Below, in pieces: positions 2,679-21,655 of a stretch of 64,000 nt of DNA. Each line of letters begins with the position of its first letter. Position 1 is the stretch's first letter. Source of the stretch: Akkermansia muciniphila (GTDB lineage Bacteria > Verrucomicrobiota > Verrucomicrobiia > Verrucomicrobiales > V1-33); contig CAMDJM010000016.1 of the NCBI GenBank assembly GCA_945900785.1, forward strand, positions 2,627 through 66,626, read 5' to 3'. Made by a program: the position numbers and the translations under genes. The notes below the pieces were generated by a model. The model made no database searches. It had not been told where the DNA came from and was given only the letters and a program-made list of their open reading frames with translations.

Positions 2679-3332
2679 ATGAACTTCCACCGCCGGTTTC
2701 TTCTTTGTCAGATTTTTCCTGCCATCGCGTCTGTGCTCATGGGGTCAGCCTTGCAGGGTGCTGAACCAGCGGGGAAGACGATGCTGTTTTTCGGTGACAG
2801 CCTGACAGCGGGGTATGGCTTGGAGGATCCGGCAGCGGAGGCCTGGCCTTCCCTGATTGGCGCAAAATTAAAAGAAACCGCCCCGGAGTGGAAGGTGGTC
2901 AATGCCGGTCTGAGCGGGGAGACGACTTCGGCGGGACTGCGGCGGGTGGATTGGGTGTTGCGGCGGCCGGCCGACGTTTTTGTGCTGGCGCTGGGGGGCA
3001 ATGATGGGCTGCGCGGGATCGGGGCGGCCCTGACCAAGTCGAATTTGGAGGCGATCATGGCAAAAGTGCGGGTGAAATGCCCACAGGCAGTGATTGTGTT
3101 GGCAGGGATGAAGATGCCGGTGAGTATGGGGGACTATGCCAGGGATTTTGAAGCCGTTTTTGCCCAAATCGCAGCGGCGGATCTCAAGTTGGTTTCCATC
3201 CCCTTTCTTTTGGAAGGCGTGGGCGGGGTGGCGGCGCTGAATCAGCCAGATGCCATCCATCCAAACATGGAGGGGCACCGCAAGGTGGCGGAACATGTAT
3301 GGAAAACGCTGGGGCCGCTCATCAGGAAGTGA
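2679..3332 (+). CDS. SGNH/GDSL hydrolase (TesA-like arylesterase / lysophospholipase L1)
   Basis: ORF 2490..3332 trimmed to ATG 2679. Signal peptide, then blocks FFGDSLTAGYG, NAGLSGETT, LGGNDGLRG and DAIHPN (the SGNH catalytic blocks). Confidence 0.85.
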   Translation: MNFHRRFLLCQIFPAIASVLMGSALQGAEPAGKTMLFFGDSLTAGYGLEDPAAEAWPSLIGAKLKETAPEWKVVNAGLSGETTSAGLRRVDWVLRRPADVFVLALGGNDGLRGIGAALTKSNLEAIMAKVRVKCPQAVIVLAGMKMPVSMGDYARDFEAVFAQIAAADLKLVSIPFLLEGVGGVAALNQPDAIHPNMEGHRKVAEHVWKTLGPLIRK

Positions 3333-3351
3333 GGAGAGGCCGCCGGGAACT

Positions 3352-4365
3352 TCAGGCATGGATGGGCTTGGCCCGGGTCAGGAGGCGTGCCATCCAGCCG
3401 GGTTTCCCCTGATTATTTTTCCGTTTCCACGGGAAAATCACCGTGCCCAGCCAGGAGAGGAAGAGATCCGAGGTGAAACCGATGATGCCGATCATGCCGA
3501 TGGCGGCATAAACGTTGTCGAAGTTCCGGTAACGGGCCTGCTGGTTGATGAAAAAGGTGATCCCTGACATGGTGCCGATGACTTCCGCCACAATGAGATA
3601 GGTCCAGGCCCAGCCGAGGAGGATGCGCATGTCATTATAGATGTCCGGCAGCGCCGCCGGGATGATGACTTTGGTGATAATTTTCCGCTGCGGGGCACCC
3701 AGGGTTTGGGCGGCTTCCACCAGAGAGGGATCGACTTTCCGCACCGTATTCGAGATGACCAGCACCTGCTGGAAGAAGGTGCCGATCACGATGATGGCGA
3801 TCTTCGGGGCGTCATTGATGCCGAGCACCGCCACCCAAAGGGCACCAAAGGCGGGGGCTGGCAGGTAGCGGAAGAACTCGATAAAGGGCTCAAAAAGCCG
3901 TGAGAAAAAACGATAGGCCCCGCAGAGGATGCCCAGCGGAAGCCCGATGAGGGAAGAGAGGACAAAGCCCCAAAAGATGGTCTGAATGGAACGCCACAGG
4001 CTTTCGTGCAGCCAGGGCTCATTCGGCAGGCGCGGGGGAGTGGTGAAGCCGGTGTAAAAGGCCCGGGCGACTTCGTGCGGGGCAGGGAGGTAGACGGGAT
4101 TGACCCGGTGTCCGGCCCCTGGGGCGATGCCATCCTTCATGGCCTGCGCATTGGCCTCCTCGAAATCCTGCACCGGCAGTTCCATGCCTTCCGAAAAAGA
4201 CTCCACTTCCCCGGCATCGGTGATATGAATCTGCGGATGCCAGAGCCATGGAACATAAGCGACCATGGCCCACAACGCCAGTGGCAGCAGAAACGAGAGC
4301 ACAGTCAACACCAGCCGCTTCCGGGTTGGGAGTTCGTGTTTGAGGCCCAGGCTATCCTTGCGCAT
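3352..4365 (-). CDS. ABC transporter permease (nitrate/sulfonate/taurine NitT/TauT-type)
   Basis: Six-TM profile with the EAA-like loop VDPSLVEAAQTLGAPQRKIITKVIIPAALPDIYNDMRILLGWAWTYLIVAEVIG. No ATPase or binding-protein gene is adjacent. Confidence 0.8.
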   Translation of the reverse strand: MRKDSLGLKHELPTRKRLVLTVLSFLLPLALWAMVAYVPWLWHPQIHITDAGEVESFSEGMELPVQDFEEANAQAMKDGIAPGAGHRVNPVYLPAPHEVARAFYTGFTTPPRLPNEPWLHESLWRSIQTIFWGFVLSSLIGLPLGILCGAYRFFSRLFEPFIEFFRYLPAPAFGALWVAVLGINDAPKIAIIVIGTFFQQVLVISNTVRKVDPSLVEAAQTLGAPQRKIITKVIIPAALPDIYNDMRILLGWAWTYLIVAEVIGTMSGITFFINQQARYRNFDNVYAAIGMIGIIGFTSDLFLSWLGTVIFPWKRKNNQGKPGWMARLLTRAKPIHA

Positions 4366-7937: not shown

Positions 7938-8010
7938 GGCCCGATAGCTCAGTTGGTAGAGCAGTGGATTGAAGATCCTCGTGTCGGCGGTTCAAATCCG
8001 TCTCGGGCCA
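7938..8010 (+). tRNA. tRNA-Phe (anticodon GAA)
   Basis: GGCCCGATAGCTCAGTTGGTAGAGCAGTGGATTGAAGATCCTCGTGTCGGCGGTTCAAATCCGTCTCGGGCCA. Cloverleaf with 7-bp acceptor stem, D-arm GCTC/GAGC, anticodon loop TTGAAGA and T-arm GGCGG/CCGTC with a TTCAAAT loop. Close to E. coli tRNA-Phe. CCA is not encoded. Confidence 0.9.
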
Positions 8011-8088
8011 CCTCCTTGATTTTCAGTAAGTTACAATGGGAAATTAGAGGTTTATGCTAAAATGGCAACACTTATTGGCAACACTATT

Positions 8089-9849: not shown

Positions 9850-10689
9850 ATGAAATTACCTGAAGGCAAAAGCCGCCTCGATCTCGTCAAAGCCGGCATC
9901 AATTCCCTCAACATCCTGCCCAAACGGGGCCGCTTCATCGTTTCCATTCAAAAACTGCTCGAAGATCCCGACAACGAGCGCCGCACGTTCCGGGGCATGG
10001 AAGGCCTCATCGCCTCTATCCGGGCGCACGGCATCGTGGAACCCATCACCGTGACCCCGGAGGGAGACCATTTCCGGATCCTCACCGGTCACCGGCGGTA
10101 TCGCGCAGCCAAAGCCATCGACCTTACGGAAATCGAAGTCATCTCCCGCGATCCCGAAGATGCCCTCACCCGTCGAAGGAAGAGTATCATTTCCAATATG
10201 CAGCGTGAGGACATTGGAGCCATCGAGATGGCCGAAGCCCTGCAAACCCTGCTTGATGAGGATAAAAGCATTGCGACCCAGCGGCAGCTTGCCGGACTGA
10301 TAGGGAAGAGCGAAGGATGGGTGAGCGAGATGCTCCGTATCCTGACGCTTTCCGCCAAGCACCAGGAACAACTTCGGACGTCCCAAGTTTCCGTATCATA
10401 CGATAGCGCCATGCGCATCGCGCGGTGCGAGCCTGCGCTCCAAGCCGACCTCATCGCCGCCACCCTGAGAGGGGAGAGCACCCGCGAAATCCGCAGCCGC
10501 ATCACCGCCAGCAAAGGCCCATCAAAAGGGAAGCAGGGCAGGGGAGCAAACCCCAATCACCCCGCCACCCCGGTGGTCACGTTTTCTGAAATCTACGAAG
10601 GCTGCACCGCCATCGTGCGCGGCCCGGAAGGGGAAAGCACCCGGGAACACATGCGCACCGCCGTGCAAAAGCTCCTCAAGCAGTTGTAA
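9850..10689 (+). CDS. parB: ParB/Spo0J-like partition protein (ParB N-terminal domain + HTH)
   Basis: IVEPITV....HFRILTGHRRYRAAK is the ParB box. QRQLAGLIGKSEGWVSEMLRIL is the HTH. It lies immediately downstream of parA. Confidence 0.85.
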   Translation: MKLPEGKSRLDLVKAGINSLNILPKRGRFIVSIQKLLEDPDNERRTFRGMEGLIASIRAHGIVEPITVTPEGDHFRILTGHRRYRAAKAIDLTEIEVISRDPEDALTRRRKSIISNMQREDIGAIEMAEALQTLLDEDKSIATQRQLAGLIGKSEGWVSEMLRILTLSAKHQEQLRTSQVSVSYDSAMRIARCEPALQADLIAATLRGESTREIRSRITASKGPSKGKQGRGANPNHPATPVVTFSEIYEGCTAIVRGPEGESTREHMRTAVQKLLKQL

Positions 10690-10806
10690 ACAATGCCACG
10701 CCAGACCACACCAAACGAAATGAGTCAAGCCCCCCTATTTACAGGCTGTTTTTCAAGTTCGCCCAAAGGGCTCGACAACTGCTCCGATGCCTGCTAAAAT
10801 TGTTCC

Positions 10807-11079
10807 ATGAACGCCACCTTGGAACGTATTTTGCATGACGTGGAACAACTGCCTCAACAGGAACAGTGTGAACTCACAGCCTACCTCAATCAACGCCTCG
10901 AATCACAATTTGAAGCTGACGATGCTGAAGTCGCAGCGGCTTGGGAATCTGAAATAAATGAGCGGGTCGCCAGCATCATCACGGGCAAGGCTGAGCTTAT
11001 CCCCGGAGACGAGTTCGAGGCCCAGATGGCCAGTTTCATGTCTGACCTTAAAGCGGGAAAGACTCCGGCAGCCCTATGA
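10807..11079 (+). CDS. Putative addiction-module antitoxin (TIGR02574-like)
   Basis: ILHDVEQLPQQEQCELTAYLNQRLES...DAEVAAAWESEINERVASIITGKAELIPGDEF matches the 'putative addiction module component' pattern. Its stop overlaps the downstream toxin start (ATGA at 11076-11079). Confidence 0.7.
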   Translation: MNATLERILHDVEQLPQQEQCELTAYLNQRLESQFEADDAEVAAAWESEINERVASIITGKAELIPGDEFEAQMASFMSDLKAGKTPAAL

Positions 11080-12951: not shown

Positions 12952-13432
12952 CACGGTGGTTTTGAGCATGTATGGCCCCGCTCCATGCGCTCGATTCCCC
13001 TCTTCCCCTCATCGTGGTGGCGGCACATCGAACGGTAAATGATAGTAGCCCATGATCGCCTTTGATCGCTCGTAAATGGCCCGCTCGGAAAATCCGGCGC
13101 GTTCACACATCTCATTCATCGGAGCCCAGCCCTTCATGATGAATTGCAGCAGCTCCCGTCGGTCGATCTGCACCTGCGACGAGGCCTCGCCCCCCTTCGT
13201 CTGGCCCTCCAGATGGTCCCCGGGAGGTGGCAAGGGACGGGAATTTATGACAACCGGCAGACTTGCATACCCTGCAGGGCGGTGAAAGGGTGTTCACACA
13301 TCAAGAGCCTCTGCCGCAAGGCGGAGACAGCAACCTAGCCGAGACGCCAAGGTGCCTTCCGCAGACTTATCATCTGCGGGATGAGTCGAGTGGGACCAGA
13401 CAGACCCACCGAAAAACAGTCTCCCGTAATGA

Positions 13433-13474
13433 AAACGCCCGGTTTGATGTCCTCAGGCCGGGCGTTTCGTTTTT
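13433..13474 (+). terminator. Rho-independent terminator candidate
   Basis: AAACGCCCGG ... CCGGGCGTTT, a 10-bp stem, followed by a TCGTTTTT tract. Confidence 0.45.
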
Positions 13475-13513
13475 CGGACTCCTGATGTGGACCAATCCTA
13501 ACTCCATATCAAA

Positions 13514-13744
13514 ATGACCGCCTGCCAGCCCATCCTTTCCCGCCGCCAGCGCCCGGCGGGGGAAAATCATCACCTCTGGAACAACCATGGAACCTGGTGG
13601 TTCCACGGCACCGTTCACCAGCCGGATGGCACCTCGGTGCGGGTCCGCTGCAGCTTGAAGACGACCGACCCGTCCGTCGCCCGGCGTCGCCGGGACCGCA
13701 TCCTGACGGCAGCGGCGGCCGCCAACCAACCTGTCAAAGCGTGA
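13514..13744 (+). CDS. Small protein resembling the N-terminal arm-type DNA-binding domain of tyrosine integrases
   Basis: 76 aa. NHGTWWFHGTVHQPDGTSVRVRCSLKTTDPSVARRRRDRIL resembles the '...WWF.....DG...R.SL.T.D...A...RD.IL' integrase N-termini. No core-binding or catalytic domain follows. It ends 18 nt before the AAA+ gene. Confidence 0.4.
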   Translation: MTACQPILSRRQRPAGENHHLWNNHGTWWFHGTVHQPDGTSVRVRCSLKTTDPSVARRRRDRILTAAAAANQPVKA

Positions 13745-13761
13745 AAACGAAACATCCTGAC

Positions 13762-15237
13762 ATGTCCCATTCCTCACCGGCATCACCTCCCGCCGTCCTT
13801 TTCTGTCCCGGTCTGTCCGGTGACGGACGCCTGCTTGCTCCCGGCTGGCTGCGCCACCTTGGGGTCTACGGCTACGATGCCGTGGAGGACATCATCCTCG
13901 CGGCCCTCATTTCCGGCGACCCGCTGCTGCTCATCGGCAAGGCCGGCACGGGGAAAACTTTCCTCCTCAACAGCCTGAGCGAAGCCCTCGGCCTGACGCA
14001 CCGCCACTACAACGCCAGCCTGATTGCTTTCGATGACCTTGTCGGGTTTCCCTTTCCCGACAAGGATGGCACGGCGATCCGTTATATCCAAACCCCGGCC
14101 ACGATCTGGCAGGCGGAAGCCGTGCTCATTGACGAGCTGAGCCGCTGCAAACCGGAACACCAGAACCGACTGTTTTCCCTCGTCCATGAGCGCCGCATCC
14201 AAGGGCTCGACTTGCCGGAACTTCGCTACCGGTGGGCGGCCATGAACCCGTGCGGACCGGCGGACGGCGAGGATTTTTATGAGGGTTCGGAGTCGCTCGA
14301 CCAAGCGCTGGCGGACCGCTTTGCCTTCATCATTGAAGTGCCCGACTGGGATGGCCTCGTGGACGCGGACCGTCGGCTGGTGGCCGACGCCCGGGGCATC
14401 AACCGCCCTTCGTTCGATGCGGTCGGGCTGAGCCGGGCCGTGGAGGAAGGACGGCGGCGATTCGAGTCCGCCCCCGACGAACTGCATGAGGCGGCCCTGA
14501 CTTATGCGTCGGTGGTGGCCACGCAGTTGCTCCAGCCGGGCATCCGGCTTTCGCCCCGTCGGGTGCGCCAGTTCTCACGGAACCTCATCGCTCTCACGCT
14601 GGTGAGCGGCGGGCAGCCCCTGAGCGGATTGTTCCGCAGCGGGCTGACGAATTCCCTGCCGCAACTCGCATGGGGTGTCCGGGTCGCCGACGCGGTGCTG
14701 CGCGGGGCTCATGCGGCGGCGTGGGATTTCCTGACCCGGAACGAGGAAAGCCGCTGGCTGTCCCGCGTGCTCCACGAGAAGGATCCCGCGAAGCGGTGCC
14801 GCCTGCTGCTGGGCGGTGCCCCGTCACGGGACACCGTGACCATGGCAGTCCGCCAGTCGCTCATCCAGTTGCCTGCTCCGGAGGCTGCGGTGCTGGCCTT
14901 GGCGCTGCTTCCGGTGGCGCAACAGAGGCCGACCATTCTGGGTGAGGAAGCGCTGGCGGCCATCGTGGAAGTGGCGGCCCCCATTCTGGAAGTCCAGGGC
15001 GAGGTGAAATGGCGGCTCCGGGAGGGCCTTCAGCCTGACACCAATCCGCACCCGGCCCTCAGTGAATGCAGCGCGTTGTTGCCATCACTGCGGGGAGCCC
15101 GGCAGGCCCGCGCCCGGCAGCTGTTTTACCACTGCATCGTGCATGAATACCCCATCCCGGACGCCGCGCAGCTGGAGCACTGCCTCGACCGTGCCATGCG
15201 CGCCGTGAAGCCCTTTCTCACCCAAACGAAACCATGA
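13762..15237 (+). CDS. RavA/MoxR-like AAA+ ATPase with a long helical C-terminal extension
   Basis: ORF 13597..15237 trimmed to ATG 13762. Walker A LLLIGKAGTGKTF, Walker B AVLIDELSR, sensor-1 region RWAAMNP, LADRFAFII. Spacing and motif order resemble RavA/MoxR. Confidence 0.85.
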   Translation: MSHSSPASPPAVLFCPGLSGDGRLLAPGWLRHLGVYGYDAVEDIILAALISGDPLLLIGKAGTGKTFLLNSLSEALGLTHRHYNASLIAFDDLVGFPFPDKDGTAIRYIQTPATIWQAEAVLIDELSRCKPEHQNRLFSLVHERRIQGLDLPELRYRWAAMNPCGPADGEDFYEGSESLDQALADRFAFIIEVPDWDGLVDADRRLVADARGINRPSFDAVGLSRAVEEGRRRFESAPDELHEAALTYASVVATQLLQPGIRLSPRRVRQFSRNLIALTLVSGGQPLSGLFRSGLTNSLPQLAWGVRVADAVLRGAHAAAWDFLTRNEESRWLSRVLHEKDPAKRCRLLLGGAPSRDTVTMAVRQSLIQLPAPEAAVLALALLPVAQQRPTILGEEALAAIVEVAAPILEVQGEVKWRLREGLQPDTNPHPALSECSALLPSLRGARQARARQLFYHCIVHEYPIPDAAQLEHCLDRAMRAVKPFLTQTKP

Positions 15238-15821
15238 CCATCCTGACCCTTATTGCCCGGTTCCTTGCTGCGGTGATCCAAGGCTGGTTTCCCGAGCCGG
15301 CCGGTGCCGTGACCGGGACGGGCGGCTGCCGGAATCCCGGGAATGGCGGCAGGCGGAACGGCGATCCCCTGCGGCACGCCAACACGGGCGGTCCGCGCTC
15401 CCGGGTGGTGTCCACCGCCGTCGTGAGCCGGATGCTGAGTGACGGCTCGGGAATCCTCGGACTGAAGTCGCTGGGAACGTATCGTCTGCCCCGGCAGCCG
15501 GTGGCCAATTCACTCCGCGAGTTCGCTATGACCCTGCTGAGCCGCGCCGGATTTCTCACTCCGGAGGAGGCGTGGGAGGCCCATGCGTCGCAACTTCCCG
15601 CCGGGGTCGCCCTCGTGGTGGACTCCCCTCCCGGCCCGGAGGTCGATGACGCCGGGGAGGATCCAGTCCCGCTCCTGCGCAGAGCCTTGGTGCTGGGCAA
15701 GTGCAGCGGCAGCCTTTTCAGCCCTGACCGCCCGTTGATCTGGTCCGAGCGGAGACTTGCGCGCTCGGTGCGTCTGGTCCTCTGCGACACCGCAACCTTC
15801 GCCCGCAATGACGATGACTGA
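15234..15821 (+). CDS. Hypothetical protein (operon member, no recognisable domain)
   Basis: The ATG overlaps the AAA+ stop (ATGA 15234-15237). The codon third position is GC-rich like its neighbours. The end overlaps the next gene by 14 nt. Confidence 0.5.
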   Translation: MTILTLIARFLAAVIQGWFPEPAGAVTGTGGCRNPGNGGRRNGDPLRHANTGGPRSRVVSTAVVSRMLSDGSGILGLKSLGTYRLPRQPVANSLREFAMTLLSRAGFLTPEEAWEAHASQLPAGVALVVDSPPGPEVDDAGEDPVPLLRRALVLGKCSGSLFSPDRPLIWSERRLARSVRLVLCDTATFARNDDD

Positions 15822-17220
15822 GACCCCGTTCGACCGCCGCCATATCGAAGTCGTGCTCGCGGAGTTCGTGGAGGACAATCCGCTGGCTTGCGCGGGGATT
15901 CTCTCGGTCGCCCGCCTTGAGTTCACGACGGAAATTCCGACGCTGGCAGTGACCCTCGGCGATGATCTGCCGCGCCTTCTCATCAATCCGGAATTCGTCG
16001 CCGCGCACATCCGGACCGAGGATGACCTGCGGGCCGTGCTGCTCCATGAATTCCTCCACGTGCTGCTGGGCCACACGAAGCTTTTCAAAAAGATGGACGA
16101 GGCGACCAACCTCGCCCTCGATGCGGTGATCAACCACATCGTGCAGCGTGAACTGGGGGTAGCCTCCGGCGAATTCTTCCGGCGGTATTACACGCCCACG
16201 GGTGACGGCTGCCCGCTTTGGCTCCTGCGTCCGGACGCCCCGGGCGACATTCGGCCTCGAAACCCCGAGGCTGCGGCACAGCGGTCGCGAAAGCTGTCCG
16301 GCCCAAGGGAATTGGCTAACTTCGCTCTCCAATTTGACCACCGTTCGAGGATTCACCTGCTCCGCAGCGGGCTGGCCAACGGAACGGTGCTGGCCGATGA
16401 TGTGCTTGACGCTTTCGATGCGCTTAAACTTGCTATTCCGGGCAGGATCATCCTGATTGGCAATCACCGGGAGGAGGGCCCCATGCACCCCGCCAACCGC
16501 GAGCGGCTCGACCGGCTTTTCCAGCAACTCGACGGGAGCGGCATTTTCCGCAACCCGGGGGAGCATGGTGCCGGACCGGAACCCTATCAGGCGGCATGGA
16601 GCGCGGCTGATCCCTCGCGGAAATGGTGCGCGGAAACGGCGCGGATGCTGCAAAAACTCCTCGTCCCCCATCCGCGAAGCCGTCCGGTGCTGGACGGACA
16701 GGTTTCCTTCCATCTCCCGGTGGCCAACCCGAGTGACCGCCGCGCCGCCCTGCGCTCGCTGTGGAACCCGCTGGTGCCCGACTTCCACTGGCAGGCCGAC
16801 AGCCACCGCCCGCGCGGGCTGGCCAGCATCTATCTTGATGTCAGCGGCTCCATGAATCCGGAACTTGAGTTGCTGACCGGTCTGCTCTGGCGGCTGCGCC
16901 GGTGGATCCAGTCGCCCTTCCATGCCTTTTCCAACGAAGTGGCCCCCGCCAATCTCGTCGGCGGAAAACTGGTCACCAACACCACCGGCGGCACCTGCTT
17001 CAATGTTGTCCTCGAGCACATCCTGAAGCACCGGCCGCAAAAGTCGCTCATCGTCACGGACGGCTATATCGAAAAGCCGTGCATCCGCCTGCTCCGTCAA
17101 CTCAAGGCCAGCGGCGAAGCCATTCATGTCCTCGTTTCGGCTCACGGGACGTCAGCGCCCTTCGACCTCCACGGCATCCCCCGGACCATCCTCCCCAACA
17201 TCAACCCCAAGTCATCATGA
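15808..17220 (+). CDS. Putative metallopeptidase (HExxH) + VWA domain protein (DUF2201_N / DUF2201-like)
   Basis: ORF 15757..17220 trimmed to ATG 15808. AVLLHEFLHVLLGHT...NLALDAVINHIV is the HExxH peptidase-like N-domain. The C-terminal part has IYLDVSGSMNPE (MIDAS DxSxS) ...TNTTGGT...LIVTDGY, a VWA fold. Confidence 0.8.
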   Translation: MTMTETPFDRRHIEVVLAEFVEDNPLACAGILSVARLEFTTEIPTLAVTLGDDLPRLLINPEFVAAHIRTEDDLRAVLLHEFLHVLLGHTKLFKKMDEATNLALDAVINHIVQRELGVASGEFFRRYYTPTGDGCPLWLLRPDAPGDIRPRNPEAAAQRSRKLSGPRELANFALQFDHRSRIHLLRSGLANGTVLADDVLDAFDALKLAIPGRIILIGNHREEGPMHPANRERLDRLFQQLDGSGIFRNPGEHGAGPEPYQAAWSAADPSRKWCAETARMLQKLLVPHPRSRPVLDGQVSFHLPVANPSDRRAALRSLWNPLVPDFHWQADSHRPRGLASIYLDVSGSMNPELELLTGLLWRLRRWIQSPFHAFSNEVAPANLVGGKLVTNTTGGTCFNVVLEHILKHRPQKSLIVTDGYIEKPCIRLLRQLKASGEAIHVLVSAHGTSAPFDLHGIPRTILPNINPKSS

Positions 17221-18329
17221 TCCGCACCAGCGAAGCCGTTCTGCGCGGCCACCCTGACAAATTCTGCGACCAGGTCGCCGACCGCATTCTCTATCATGCC
17301 TGCGGGCTGGACCCGGAGGCCTATGGTCAAATCGAGGTCGCCGCATGGTCGGACCAGGTCTTCCTCACCGGGGCCACCGTGACCCGGGAACCCTTGGAAA
17401 CCGTCTTCGCCGATGTCGTCCGCACGGTTGGTCAGGAAATCGGCTATACGCCGGGCAACTCCATCGATGCGAACCGCTATCAGGTGCACGATCACGTCTG
17501 CCGCCAGGTCCGTGATCCCCGGGAATGGACCCGGCACATCAATGATCAGGCGGTGGTCACGGGATGGGCCGGCTACGACCGGGCCACCTGCTATCTGAGC
17601 CCGGAACACTTCCTTGCCCACACCCTGCGCGAGGCTCTCGATGCCGCCTGTGCCTTTGGCGGGCCCCTTGAAGGCCACGGGCCGGACGGCAAGCTCATCG
17701 TCCATCTTGCGGAAACGCCGGCGGTTCGCGGGACCGCCGCGCGGTGGCAGGTCCAAACGATCCTCGTGACCCTCCAGCAGAAGCGCGGACCCTCCTTCCT
17801 CGACTTCCAGGGCGAGGTCGCGGCTGTAGTCCTCGAGACCCTGCGCACCGTTGCGGAAGCCGATGCCCGCTGGGCTTTCGACCGCCCATCCGCCCGCCTG
17901 CTCGTGAATCCCAACGGGCCCTTCTTCGATGGCGGCTCCAACAGTGACAACGGTCAAACCGGCCGGAAACTGGTGGCCGATTATTATGGCCCCCGCGTTC
18001 CCATCGGCGGTGGAGCCCTCAGCGGCAAGGACCTGACGCACATCGACCGCGCGGCTGCCTGCGCCGCCCGCCAGGCCTGCGTCGAGGCCGTGCATCACGG
18101 CGCGAAGGATGCCCATGTCCGCCTCACCTACGCGCCGGGCCTTGCGGAGCCGCTCGATGTCGCATGGTCGTTTTCGGACGGAGGGCGACCGCCCCAAGGA
18201 GTCCAGTTTGATTTTTCAAGCATTACCGAAGTCACCCGGGGCGCATGGCGCAGCCTGCGCGAATCCGGTCGGGGCGATCACTTCTTTGACCTCCATCACC
18301 GGTGGAACAATCCGATCTATTGCCCGTAA
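17217..18329 (+). CDS. Divergent S-adenosylmethionine synthetase (MetK / methionine adenosyltransferase) paralog
   Basis: ORF 16902..18329 trimmed to ATG 17217, which overlaps the previous stop (ATGA). SEAVLRGHPDKFCDQVADRIL, GPDGKLIV, NPNGPFFDGGSNSDNGQTGRKLVADYYGP and GGGALSGKDLTHIDRAAACAARQ align with the MetK signature blocks. Confidence 0.8.
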   Translation: MIRTSEAVLRGHPDKFCDQVADRILYHACGLDPEAYGQIEVAAWSDQVFLTGATVTREPLETVFADVVRTVGQEIGYTPGNSIDANRYQVHDHVCRQVRDPREWTRHINDQAVVTGWAGYDRATCYLSPEHFLAHTLREALDAACAFGGPLEGHGPDGKLIVHLAETPAVRGTAARWQVQTILVTLQQKRGPSFLDFQGEVAAVVLETLRTVAEADARWAFDRPSARLLVNPNGPFFDGGSNSDNGQTGRKLVADYYGPRVPIGGGALSGKDLTHIDRAAACAARQACVEAVHHGAKDAHVRLTYAPGLAEPLDVAWSFSDGGRPPQGVQFDFSSITEVTRGAWRSLRESGRGDHFFDLHHRWNNPIYCP

Positions 18330-18377: not shown

Positions 18378-20240
18378 CACATTTAGCCCGACTTCGCCGA
18401 CTCGACATGTTATAAAACTTTTTTCATGTTATTTCAGCGTGCAATTCGTTGATATTCAATGCAGCGATTTCCAAAATGGCTTGTAGTGCAGACCTTGGGT
18501 GTTGCGGGATTAAAAATCTGGCTACCTTCTGGAGCCATCATGTTCCTGCGTTGATCCAAACGTCGGAAAAATGGCAAAGAACACCTCTACTGGAGTGTGG
18601 TCGAGAATCGGCGCCTGCACGACGGCAGGGTGCTCCAGCGGCATGTGCTTTACCTCGGGGAACTCAATGGCCGACAGGAAGCGTCCTGGCGCAAGACCGT
18701 TGATCATTTCGGCCAGGACGATGCCGCACCGCAGCAGGTGGCGCTCTTTCCTGACGATCTGGCCCCGGCAGCCAGCCCGGACGACACCCTGCCCATTGTC
18801 AGCCTCCGGCTCGGAGCCATGTCCCTGCGCCGCCCCCGTCAGTGGGGGGCCTGCTGGCTGGGGTGCGAACTCTGGCAACAACCCGGCTTGGACGCCTTCT
18901 GGCGCGAACATCTGCCGCCCGGCCGCGAGGGGACCCGCTGGGATCTGGTGCTGCAGACCTTGGCGCTCTATCGGCTCATCGACCCCGGCTCCGAGTGGCG
19001 GCTGCACCGGCATTGGTTTGACCACAGCGCCATCGCCGAACTGTTGGGCAGCGACTTCACCCTGGCCGATCCCCACCGCCTCTACGCCTGCCACGATAAA
19101 CTACTGACCCATAAACGCGCCCTCTTCGACCACCTCACCGGACGCTGGCGCGACCTCTTCAAGGCAAAATACGAAGTCCTGCTTTACGATCTGACCAGCA
19201 CCTATTTTGAAACACACTGGAAAACGATCTCCTTGATCGCGAATGGAAACACGCCCGGCCCAACGTCCGCGTAAAACTCCTGCCAAAAGAAGGCGAAACC
19301 TACGTCCTGGCGGAGAGCGGAGACCGCATCCTCAAAGAGCGCTTCATGCGCCGGCGGCGGCGGCGCAAATACCCCGCCGCGCTCGACGCCATCACCCAGC
19401 GCATGCGTCCTCTCAAATGCGACGCCGTCCACCAGGCCATCGGAGCCGCGAAAAAAGAAGCCGGGCGGGACGCCCGGTTTGTCACCATCAGCGTCCAGCA
19501 CCACGTCAGGGGCAAAGACAAAGGCAACGGGAAGGACAAAAGTGAAACCGCCACCCTGACCTACAAACTGGACCGCCAAAAACTCCGCGAAGCCCGCCGG
19601 CGCGAAGGACGTTACCTGCTCCGGACCAACCTGACAGAAGAAGATCCTGCCAAACTTTGGGAATACTACCTTCAGCTCACCGAAGTCGAGCAAGCCTTCA
19701 AAGAACTCAAAGGCGACCTCGCCCTGCGGCCCATCCATCACCAGCTGGACCATCGCATCGAAGCCCACATGATGATTCAGTCGCCGCCTCACGGCTCCTT
19801 CACCCCTGCGGGGCTGCTCCTTCGTCGCAGTCTGTCCCGGCCCATCCCGGGGGGCCTCGGCTCATCTCCTTCCTTGCCTGCGCCCTGCAAATCACCCTCA
19901 AGGCCCGGCTGAAGCAAAGCGCCACCGGCCTCACCCCCCGGGCCGTCCTTGAGAAATTTGCTGCGGTGCAAATGCTCGACGTCCACCTCCCCACCACTGA
20001 TGGGCGCGAAGTCGTCCTAACCCATTACACCCAGCCAGAAAAAGAACTCCAGCTCCTGCCCGACCAGCTCAAACTAACCCTCCCCGCCCAGCCGCCCCCG
20101 AAGATTACCGCCCCGGCAAAACCCACCTGAATGGTCCCCGCGTGTAGTGCAGACCTTTCTATTTCCAGAAAATCGTTTTGTTGATAATCAACGATATCTG
20201 CACCAACCCTTTTCCCAGTCCGCGAAGTCGGGCTAATGCC
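18378..20240 (+). mobile_element. IS1634-family (IS4-like) element remnant nested between ~100-bp inverted arms
   Basis: Inverted arms end in TTAGCCCGACTTCGC (18383-18397) and its complement (20222-20236). A 15-bp direct repeat TGTAGTGCAGACCTT at 18482-18496 and 20143-20157 flanks the transposase remnant. Confidence 0.6.
18540..20130 (+). pseudogene. IS1634-family transposase pseudogene (nonsense, internal deletion, frame-breaking insertion)
   Basis: MFLR*SKRRKNGKEHLYWSVVENRRL...LYLGELN...LLYDLTSTYFE, with TGA at 18552. The frame jumps near 19210 and the central DDE segment is missing. It resumes with ...GRYLLRTNL...LWEYYLQLTEVEQAFKELKGDLALRPIHHQ..RIEAH. About 90 extra nt follow (19770-19860), then ISFLACALQITLKARL... 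in a third frame. Confidence 0.75.
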
Positions 20241-20587: not shown

Positions 20588-21655
20588 TCAGGGGACCGGC
20601 ACATTCGCCAGCACATTCTCCACGGTGCTGATGGGGTCTCCGGTTTGGCCGTTCCGTTGGTCCTTGAGCAGCAGGCGGTGGGCCAGCACGGCAGAGGCGA
20701 TTTTTTTCACGTGATCCGGGTAGACGGCCTTGGCCTCTTCCAGCCAGGCCGCCGCCTGGGCGGCACGCATCACCGCGATGGCGGCCCGGGCGGACAGGGA
20801 GCCCCGTCCGGCATCCGCGCGGCGCAGGCTTTCGCAAACCAGCGTGATGTAGCGGCAGACCCGGTCGTTCACCGGCACCGCAGCCGCTTCCGCCTGGGCG
20901 CGCCGGATGTCATCGGCGTGGAGCAGCGGCGTCGTTTCCACAAACTGCGGGCCCCGCTGGGCGTGTAGCTGGAGCAGCCTGGCCTGGGATTCCAAATCCG
21001 GCAGCGTCATATGGATGCTGAGGAGAAAGCGGTCCAACTGCGGCTCCGGCAGCGGGAAGGTTCCGGTGGAAAAGGTATTGTTCTGGGTCGCGATTACCAT
21101 GAAGGGCGAGGTCAGACGGCGGGTGACCCCGTCCACCGTGACCTGCTGCTCGCTCATGCACTCGAAGAGCGCACTTTGAATCCGCGGGCTGGTGCGGTTG
21201 ATTTCATCGGCCAGAACGATGTTGGAGAACACCGGCCCGGGAATGAATTGAAATTCCCCGCTCGCCTGGTTGAAAATGGAGTAGCCCGTAATGTCCGCCG
21301 GCAGCAGATCCGGCGTGAATTGGATCCGGCTGAAGGCGGCGTCGATGCTGCGGGCAAGCGTGGAGGCGAGACTGGTTTTTCCGATGCCGGGTGCCCCCTG
21401 GATCAGGACGTGACCATTCGCCAGCAGCGCCGTGATCAGCAGAAAAGCGGGCGTTTCAGCACCCAGGACGGTGCCGGTCAGTCTTTGGTGGAGGGCTTGC
21501 AGTTGTTGTCTCACGGAAGGGCAGGAAGTTGAAGGGAAAATAGGCCAACAGGAAAGGCCTGCGGTATCGGACAGGATCCTCCAGCTTTCCACCTTGGAAA
21601 CCTCAAACTTCATTCCGTTCACTGCGTCCGGAACGGGGGAATTACGCGAATTCAT
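20588..21655 (-). CDS. MoxR-family AAA+ ATPase (AAA_3 type)
   Basis: GHVLIQGAPGIGKTSLA (Walker A), NIVLADEINRTSPRIQSALFECMSEQQVTVDG (Walker B and sensor), VIATQN, LDRF.L, and a C-terminal lid ...AVLAHRLLL. The true start is probably internal (for example GTG at 21514), because the first ~45 aa look non-native. Confidence 0.85.
   Translation of the reverse strand: MNSRNSPVPDAVNGMKFEVSKVESWRILSDTAGLSCWPIFPSTSCPSVRQQLQALHQRLTGTVLGAETPAFLLITALLANGHVLIQGAPGIGKTSLASTLARSIDAAFSRIQFTPDLLPADITGYSIFNQASGEFQFIPGPVFSNIVLADEINRTSPRIQSALFECMSEQQVTVDGVTRRLTSPFMVIATQNNTFSTGTFPLPEPQLDRFLLSIHMTLPDLESQARLLQLHAQRGPQFVETTPLLHADDIRRAQAEAAAVPVNDRVCRYITLVCESLRRADAGRGSLSARAAIAVMRAAQAAAWLEEAKAVYPDHVKKIASAVLAHRLLLKDQRNGQTGDPISTVENVLANVPVP

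Follow-up and report, generated by a model that had tools for sequence, protein, structure and literature searches.

The sequence analysed here (the window) is a stretch of 64,000 nucleotides from Akkermansia muciniphila (assembly GCA_945900785.1, contig CAMDJM010000016.1, positions 2,627 to 66,626 of the forward strand), on which an open reading frame (ORF) for a divergent paralog of methionine adenosyltransferase (MAT, MetK), the enzyme that forms S-adenosylmethionine (SAM), was identified as the last of a cassette of four co-directional genes. This ORF was found to be intact, with an ATG start codon at 17217, a stop codon at 18327-18329 and a total of 370 codons, its start overlapping the stop of the preceding gene by 4 nt (an ATGA junction). 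Three public contigs carry a gene call for the identical protein; on one of these, an 88-kb ENA metagenome contig, the calls for the four cassette genes were found to agree with those of the window in both order and length. The genes of the cassette are as follows:

13762..15237, + strand: MoxR-class AAA+ ATPase (AAA_5) of 491 aa (Pfam AAA_5 5.3e-9; public gene call of 491 aa; present in 75/75 loci)

15234..15821, + strand: small orphan protein of 195 aa (~150-156 aa elsewhere), its start overlapping the stop of the AAA gene by 4 nt

15814..17220, + strand: zincin-like metallopeptidase (HEFLH) joined to a VWA domain with a metal ion-dependent adhesion site (MIDAS; DVSGSM...TTGGT...TDGY), a diverged DUF2201 architecture (Pfam and invariant residues), its start overlapping the stop of the small gene

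17217..18329, + strand: divergent MAT (MetK) paralog of 370 aa (Pfam, TIGR01034, PDB matches, residue map, AlphaFold2 (AF2) model and tree)

The MAT paralog and its four-gene cassette

MAT is regarded as a single-function, near-universal housekeeping enzyme and, to our knowledge, only MAT and the cobalamin adenosyltransferases displace the whole triphosphate of ATP. An original prediction, made by eye from the sequence of the window, had described ORF 17217-18329 as a MetK paralog, and this is upheld by homology to MAT that is far above chance. Matches were obtained to the Pfam domains S-AdoMet_synt_N (1.1e-15) and S-AdoMet_synt_C (1.5e-18), to TIGR01034 (2.9e-40, 138.4 bits) and to 45 distinct PDB sequences of solved MATs (1e-21 to 1e-28). 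As the TIGR01034 score falls under the equivalog cut-off of 309.4 bits, the Pfam central (M) domain went undetected in the window protein (it was found in many relatives) and identity to E. coli MetK is ~27%, the gene is not an ordinary metK.

The five MetK blocks that had been pointed out in the prediction were all located (residues 4-25, 38-44, 155-162, 243-259 and 263-285), as was the altered form of the GAGDQG loop, which reads INDQAVVTGWAGY at residues 108-120. A phylogeny, which had been recommended alongside that prediction, was constructed as a neighbour-joining (NJ) tree and showed the paralog family to be monophyletic, in a clade of its own separate from canonical MetK proteins, including those encoded adjacent to cassettes. 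Among the candidates scored, 1,578 matches to the family were found at E < 1e-5. Proteins of this family are labelled by NCBI just as 'methionine adenosyltransferase domain-containing protein', and no curated family model exists for the clade.

The AF2 model of the MAT paralog had a predicted local distance difference test (pLDDT) score of 86.3 and a predicted template modelling (pTM) score of 0.89. Comparison of the model to the PDB using Foldseek gave matches to MATs at E 2e-27 with TM-scores of 0.78-0.84 over ~380-395 columns. The fold is predicted to be complete, since the model superposes full-length on solved MATs. The earlier description of the central domain as poorly aligning thus applies to its diverged sequence, but not to the fold itself. 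Furthermore, the last ~40 aa had been thought to have no MetK counterpart; this proved incorrect, as the C-terminal residues G353/H355F...W363-N364 align with the GHFGRE..FPWE motif of MetK after a deletion of ~20 residues. G353, H355, W363 and N364 were invariant in an alignment of 28 sequences of the family.

The MAT paralog was found to be the fourth gene of the same cassette in all 75 loci whose upstream DNA was long enough and never occurred alone. The order of the co-directional genes is AAA_5 ATPase (~484 aa), small protein (~156 aa), zincin and VWA protein (~448 aa) and MAT paralog (~363 aa), with 4-nt start/stop overlaps identified in 52, 39 and 49 cases for the first, second and third junctions, respectively. 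The junctions of the window cassette likewise overlap, each start lying over the preceding stop.

For the AAA protein of the cassette, the true start was identified as the ATG at 13762, and the Walker A (GxxGTGKT) and Walker B (IDE) motifs were invariant (G63, G65, K66, T67; D125, E126). Its nearest solved relatives, by best PDB match, are the AAA modules of midasin, and a weak bpMoxR match was also recorded. The third protein was found by Pfam to contain DUF2201_N (33 of 38 members examined), the DUF2201 VWA domain (28 of 38), Peptidase_M48 (9 of 38) or VWA_CoxE (8 of 38). Residues H78, E79, H82, D342, S344, S346, T394 and D416 were invariant and the MIDAS was complete. No significant match was obtained between the profile of this family and PDB sequences.

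The small protein had no Pfam match, its sequence profile gave no significant match to PDB sequences, and comparison of its AF2 model (pLDDT 74) to the PDB with Foldseek returned no match at E < 0.7. Residues 20-61 are predicted to be disordered, and within this stretch (pLDDT < 50) a conserved N-x-G-G-P-x-S-R motif was identified at residues 50-57, which looks like a docking or substrate peptide for a partner enzyme. In this protein, neither a conserved Met nor a strictly conserved Cys is apparent. A library of 1.84 billion representatives was found to hold 213 relatives, all of 73-256 aa, and no fusions to other domains.

Active-site residues of the MAT paralog family

A residue map was prepared by aligning 72 family members, drawn from 80 loci of GTDB species genomes, metagenome loci and the window, to E. 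coli MetK, and MetK residues are given here in mature E. coli numbering. The MetK reference was confirmed to match PDB 7LL3 exactly, as well as 1FUG, 1P7L and 1RG9 once the usual offset of one is applied. The alignment showed a predicted site for ATP, triphosphate and metal that is conserved throughout the family, together with a putative methionine pocket that has been rebuilt.

Thirteen residues related to ATP, ribose, triphosphate and metal binding were kept in the 72 members, namely H14, D16, K17, E42, D118, Q119, D163, K165, D238, R244, K245, K265 and D271, with K17 being the sole residue of these that was not invariant (K in 69 members, R in three). In MetK, D16, K17, E42, D118, K165, R244, K245, K265 and D271 have roles as ligands of triphosphate, metal or ribose. 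Those of His14, D163 and D238 in MetK have been described (PMC3853416). The ATP, Mg and K ligands therefore appear intact, as had been predicted, and the possibility raised beforehand that catalytic Lys or Asp residues might be misaligned or absent was not borne out, as K165, K245, K265, D118, D163, D238 and D271 were all aligned and invariant.

The positions related to methionine binding were found to be altered family-wide. E55 (methionine amino group) is replaced by G, A or S across the family, with A in the window protein, while Q98 (methionine carboxylate) is variable, yet Q is retained in the window protein. K269 (methionine carboxylate) is replaced by His and I102 (methionine side chain) by Pro, each in 71 of the 72 members, and I302 (methionine pocket) by Pro in all 72. 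In addition, the gating loop is 7 residues shorter than that of MetK. F230, which stacks on adenine, is Phe in the clade of the window and Leu in 50 of the 72 members. I302 is a residue of the pocket at which mutations have been used to broaden the range of substrates, consistent with the PDB entries 6LTV and 6LTW (I122A/I330A). Residues E55, Q98, K269 and I102 are methionine contacts in E. coli MetK (PMC3853416, PMC1282579). These changes agree with the predicted divergence close to the substrate, which in the window protein affects all of the methionine-contact positions except Q98; the alternative of a fully canonical set of methionine residues is contradicted by E55, I102, K269 and I302.

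Compared with bacterial and eukaryotic MATs (E. coli MetK and human MAT2A; EC 2.5.1.6), the paralog shares the three-domain fold, the catalytic His of GHPD, the residues for ATP, ribose, triphosphate, Mg and K and the C-terminal HF..PW motif. It differs from them in its low identity and TIGR01034 score, in the replacement of E55, Q98, I102, K269 and I302, in its shorter gating loop, in F230 often being Leu and in the obligate linkage of its gene to three partner genes.

Residues H275, N245, N109, P101 and P307 were identified as invariant in the paralog family. Archaeal MATs (e.g. that of Thermococcus kodakarensis) hold the methionine carboxylate with His/Asn and have no equivalent of Glu55 (PMC3853416), so that a rebuilt methionine site may also be present in the paralog, where H275, N245 and N109 would be available. 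This likeness is an analogy only, the sequence of the paralog being of the bacterial/eukaryotic type and its His/Asn positions being non-homologous to those of archaeal MATs.

Regulation, distribution and neighbourhood of the cassette

Rfam was used to scan 66 cassette loci with curated gathering thresholds. A SAM riboswitch scoring at or above gathering, on the strand of the cassette and upstream of the AAA gene or of a metK-cassette unit, was identified in 35 of the 66 loci. SAM-I/IV (RF01725) was found in 29 loci, SAM-I (RF00162) in three (L033, L048 and L063; 67-79 bits) and SAM-II (RF00521) in four (L027, L031, L039 and L071). The aptamer was found to end 118-326 nt ahead of the Walker A codon in 27 loci, which corresponds to ~0-150 nt ahead of the AAA start. 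Loci bearing a riboswitch were scattered over the whole tree of the MAT paralog family. The occurrence of three unrelated or distantly related classes of SAM sensor at one operon is strong evidence that SAM represses the cassette, which would accordingly be a member of the SAM/methionine regulon that is induced when SAM is low. The arrangement resembles that of known regulon genes (metK, methionine biosynthesis and transport), with SAM-I, SAM-I/IV or SAM-II aptamers in the 5' leader; in the window, a terminator lies behind the candidate aptamer. The AAA+ ATPase, VWA-zincin, orphan protein and MAT paralog are, however, not known members of this regulon.

Two or three tandem SAM-I/IV aptamers were identified before the cassette in L057 (3472-4774), L066 (265-1139), L046 (612-1329) and L080 (4430-4760). 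Some tandem aptamers are split by short lineage-specific ORFs, which in L057 include one for a 174-aa protein with a Tat-like signal.

When all flanking ORFs were clustered, canonical metK proved to be the sole broadly recurrent neighbour of the cassette; it was present in 12 loci of several phyla, directly upstream and in the same orientation, separated by a median of 146 bp. The products of these genes are canonical (E55, Q98, I102, K269, I302 and F230 are present), are 51-59% identical to E. coli MetK and group with it in the NJ tree; pairwise identities were ambiguous as to whether the cassette-linked metK genes form a co-transferred clade of their own. The order in L081 is riboswitch, metK, riboswitch and cassette, while in L012 a riboswitch is followed by a small ORF, metK and, after a gap of 25 nt, the cassette, placing metK inside a riboswitch-led operon. 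The presence of a canonical metK in these 12 loci indicates that the MAT paralog is not simply redundant. At L051 (4222-4617), a 131-aa 'mini-MetK', in which the N-terminal ~70 aa of MetK are joined in frame to the C-terminal ~40 aa, is flanked on either side by a SAM-I/IV riboswitch just before the cassette, and appears to have arisen from a cassette-linked metK by deletion.

No riboswitch at the Rfam gathering score was found in the leader of the window cassette, for which the following features were identified:

13293..13428, + strand: candidate diverged SAM-I/IV-type riboswitch aptamer (RF01725, 27.6 bits, E 0.05, full model length)

13433..13476, + strand: intrinsic terminator, a 15-pair stem (8 G-C) followed by CGTTTTTCGG

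13514..13744, + strand: 76-aa leader ORF specific to the Verrucomicrobia clade (HHLWNNHGTWWFHGTVH...SLKT; motif HHLWNNxGTWW...SLKT; tblastn)

The score of the candidate aptamer was obtained in a focused 1.1-kb scan and lies under the gathering score of 41.1 bits. The cassette leaders of L005, L087, L013, L012, L008, L006 and L010 share 71-94% identity with this leader segment, and among them those of L012 (46.9 bits), L013 (45.1 bits) and L087 (46.2 bits) pass gathering; the leader of L009 matched just the 41-nt terminator part. RNAalifold analysis of the clade alignment showed compensatory changes in 21 of 51 predicted pairs, and the minimum free energy of the window leader RNA had a z-score of -5.7 against shuffled controls. 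Both the stem and the T-tract of the terminator are conserved in the clade alignment, and it is likely to be the expression platform of the candidate riboswitch. By tblastn, the leader ORF was located in L005, L006, L008-L012, L020 and L034, where it follows the riboswitch and precedes the AAA gene. Its only Pfam match was a weak one (0.0011) to DUF6538, an N-terminal type domain of integrases. The ORF could encode a clade-specific fifth component or regulator.

A confirmed match to the MAT paralog family was found in 245 of 185,579 species genomes. Relatives of ~50% identity were found in more than 12 phyla, nearly all of them in metagenome-assembled genomes (MAGs). Members at this level of identity occur in Verrucomicrobiota, Bacteroidota, Ignavibacteria, Acidobacteriota, Alpha-, Beta-, Gamma- and 'Delta'-proteobacteria, Chloroflexota and Actinomycetota, with further groups being Elusimicrobiota, Armatimonadota, Gemmatimonadota, Cyanobacteria and several candidate phyla. 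The MAT paralog family was absent from 72,556 plasmids (PLSDB) and 50,697 phages (INPHARED) searched with tblastn, and from 2.9 million viral contigs (IMG/VR) examined with a pattern scan. These collections were found to hold just canonical or short phage MetK-like genes, of 24-34% identity, and the profile of the VWA family gave only one kind of match in IMG/VR, a zincin fragment. The short MetK-like genes of many Streptococcus prophages (H26-H50) and uncultivated viral contigs (L089-L168) encode ~285-330 aa, are 24-34% identical to the MAT paralog used as query and belong to a different divergent MAT group.

Two further recurrent neighbours were identified, each restricted to a clade: the 76-aa leader ORF (Verrucomicrobia) and a synteny shared by the closely related L028, L030, L032 and L052. 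The 91 immediate neighbour proteins matched 67 different Pfam families, with many housekeeping proteins and a few that are mobile or defence-like. Defence-like proteins among the 91 were WYL/WCX (three), DNA methylase (two), AbiEii and Fic, this being a raw tally. PADLOC gave no match for the MAT paralog or the VWA protein, and just marginal generic ATPase matches for the AAA protein.

The island of L004 that holds the cassette also contains genes for SIR2, for HDAC with HTH_11 and for an HNH/ScoMcrA-like protein, and a SAM-I/IV riboswitch (14334-14458, - strand) upstream of a 118-aa gene with no function assigned. The HDAC and HTH_11 pair adjoins the cassette again in L086. In L079, a PNP_UDP_1 protein (2719-3459), which we take to be like a methylthioadenosine/S-adenosylhomocysteine (MTA/SAH) nucleosidase, is encoded immediately before the cassette leader's first riboswitch, and a second PNP_UDP_1 neighbour is present among the 91 flanking proteins.

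Possible roles of the cassette and surrounding features of the window

The MAT paralogs form a distinct MAT clade within an undescribed four-gene system that is controlled by riboswitches. We consider it moderately probable that the cassette is an auxiliary adenosyltransferase module for SAM starvation, serviced by an AAA+/VWA remodeller, within the SAM/methionine regulon. That the paralog would be a catalytically competent member of the MAT superfamily fits the data, and the earlier suggestion of an active adenosyl-transferring enzyme accords with the ATP-side residues being retained across the 72 members, which span more than 12 phyla.

In the proposed mechanism, a fall in SAM would lead to transcription of the operon. 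The MAT paralog would bind ATP as MetK does, with a sulfur nucleophile attacking C5' and tripolyphosphate being released. This nucleophile may be methionine, held by the invariant H275, N245, P101 and P307, or else a methionine-related thioether, and the product would be SAM or a compound that feeds the supply of SAM. On the model of CbbQO, NorQD and the chelatases, the MIDAS of the VWA domain would dock on the enzyme or on the small protein, and the ATPase would power a conformational step (activation, substrate presentation or product release).

An AAA_5/MoxR ATPase encoded together with an intact-MIDAS VWA protein and an enzyme is also found in CbbQ-CbbO/Rubisco, NorQ-NorD/NO reductase, RavA-ViaA and the Mg- and Co-chelatase triads. 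The general principle of MoxR AAA+/VWA remodellers has been described (PMC9976466, PMC13036017). Synteny in 75/75 loci and translational coupling suggest, on this analogy, that the AAA+/VWA pair of the cassette would act on the adjacent MAT paralog. Such a putative client is unprecedented for these remodellers, and the cassette differs from them further in the N-terminal HExxH zincin carried by its VWA protein, in its extra orphan protein and in having no obvious step of metal-cofactor insertion.

A number of points weigh against a SAM-starvation module. The sparse, patchy spread (245/185,579) and variable neighbourhoods of the cassette would also be expected of a mobile conflict system. No riboswitch at the gathering threshold was found in 31 of the 66 loci, and the candidate in the window is itself sub-threshold. 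As residues for the amino group, carboxylate and side chain of methionine are changed, SAM synthesis from free methionine is not assured. Moreover, we know of no precedent for a MAT that needs an AAA+/VWA/peptidase set.

A more tentative proposal, which we hold to be somewhat unlikely, is that the MAT paralog does not form SAM from free methionine but, aided by the AAA+/VWA-zincin machinery and the small protein, moves the 5'-deoxyadenosyl group of ATP onto a novel acceptor (a derivative of methionine, or a residue in a peptide or protein that the partners present), giving a new adenosylated or sulfonium product that rescues or signals at SAM exhaustion, or else that SAM depletion triggers the cassette as an immune module. 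A non-methionine acceptor taken by itself (another thioether or a derivative of methionine, or else a residue within a peptide or a protein, such as the invariant disordered motif of the small protein), with a product that is not SAM, is likewise judged unlikely. It would agree with the family-wide replacement of the methionine-contact positions and the gating loop shortened by 7 residues, with the coexistence of canonical metK in 12 loci, with the conserved N-x-G-G-P-x-S-R in the predicted disordered segment of the small protein and with the constant presence of a peptidase domain in the cassette. Control by SAM riboswitches and the linkage to metK argue instead that the output raises SAM, the substituted His, Asn and Pro could still hold methionine as in archaeal MATs, and the small protein has no conserved Met or strictly conserved Cys. 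The part of the original prediction that the acceptor may not be methionine is therefore left half supported: the contact positions are indeed replaced, but a His/Asn/Pro site could still bind methionine, and the SAM riboswitches and adjacent canonical metK point back to SAM/methionine metabolism.

An anti-phage or conflict system, in which a MoxR-VWA-peptidase sensor or regulator is combined with a MAT-like effector, the latter depleting ATP or producing an adenosyl compound that is toxic or serves as a signal, appears improbable; in a variant of this, the SAM riboswitches might sense depletion of SAM by phage SAM lyases. Riboswitch control by an end product is, like linkage to metK, characteristic of metabolic genes, and we know of no precedent for a riboswitch-gated defence system. 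The patchy distribution across phyla, with carriers that are nearly all MAGs, the weak bpMoxR match of the AAA protein and the self-contained nature of the cassette in variable neighbourhoods would suit such a system. Some of these neighbourhoods contain defence-like genes (HNH/ScoMcrA, SIR2 and RelE in L004; Vsr and NYN in L085; WYL/WCX with a giant helicase in L088; also AbiEii and Fic). However, housekeeping neighbours are as frequent, neither the MAT nor the VWA protein was matched by PADLOC, no effector swapping was seen (the MAT is always the fourth gene) and the family is absent from the plasmid, phage and viral collections described above. Conflict modules that unite MoxR and vWA proteins with peptidases have been described (Kaur et al. 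2020, PMC7159879), and these ternary systems share with the cassette a MoxR protein, a vWA protein, an occasional metallopeptidase and a patchy spread. Unlike these, the cassette has no effector diversity, no PADLOC match and a metabolic type of regulation, and no MAT or SAM synthetase is mentioned in that study (PMC7159879).

That the paralog is an ordinary second housekeeping copy of metK is very improbable: the MAT fold, the catalytic residues and control by SAM riboswitches, as for many metK genes, would agree with this, but the protein scores 138 bits against a cut-off of 309, is ~27% identical to E. coli MetK, has replaced methionine residues, belongs to a monophyletic clade apart from even the adjacent canonical MetKs and never occurs without its three partner genes. 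A non-catalytic pseudoenzyme (a regulatory subunit, a partner in a heterodimer with MetK, or a decoy for phage proteins that target MetK) is equally hard to credit; the changed residues are mostly contributions of the partner subunit in the MAT dimer (E55, Q98, I102 and K269), which would fit a heteromeric site, but 13 catalytic or ligand residues that are invariant or near-invariant across phyla are not expected of a dead enzyme.

No paper tying MAT to MoxR/VWA proteins, MAT to defence, or the cassette genes to SAM riboswitches was found in a search of full-text literature, nor was anything relevant found on DUF2201. The spread of this distinct MAT clade over more than 12 phyla, with carriers that are almost all uncultured bacteria, its rebuilt acceptor pocket, its obligatory AAA+/VWA/peptidase partners and its three classes of SAM riboswitch together point to an unrecognised branch of SAM homeostasis. 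If the reading as a SAM-starvation module is true, the SAM regulon would gain new members and the MoxR/VWA remodellers a new type of client, and any new chemistry of adenosyl transfer may be useful for the synthesis of SAM analogues.

Among the surrounding features of the window, the following were identified downstream of the cassette:

18597-20130, + strand: frameshifted insertion sequence (IS) transposase remnants (weak DDE_Tnp_1 match), immediately downstream of the MAT paralog

20588-21655, - strand: second, classical MoxR ATPase (AAA_3 4e-59, AAA_lid_2)

No obvious terminator was seen between the MAT paralog and the transposase remnants. The classical MoxR ATPase lies 2 kb downstream on the opposite strand and is unrelated to the AAA_5 protein of the cassette. 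Upstream of the cassette, genes for a protein with ParB_N and HTH_ParB domains, a putative addiction-module antitoxin (Unstab_antitox) and tRNA-Phe were found at 9850-11079 (+ strand) and 7938-8012 (+ strand), and this stretch may be the edge of an integrated element.

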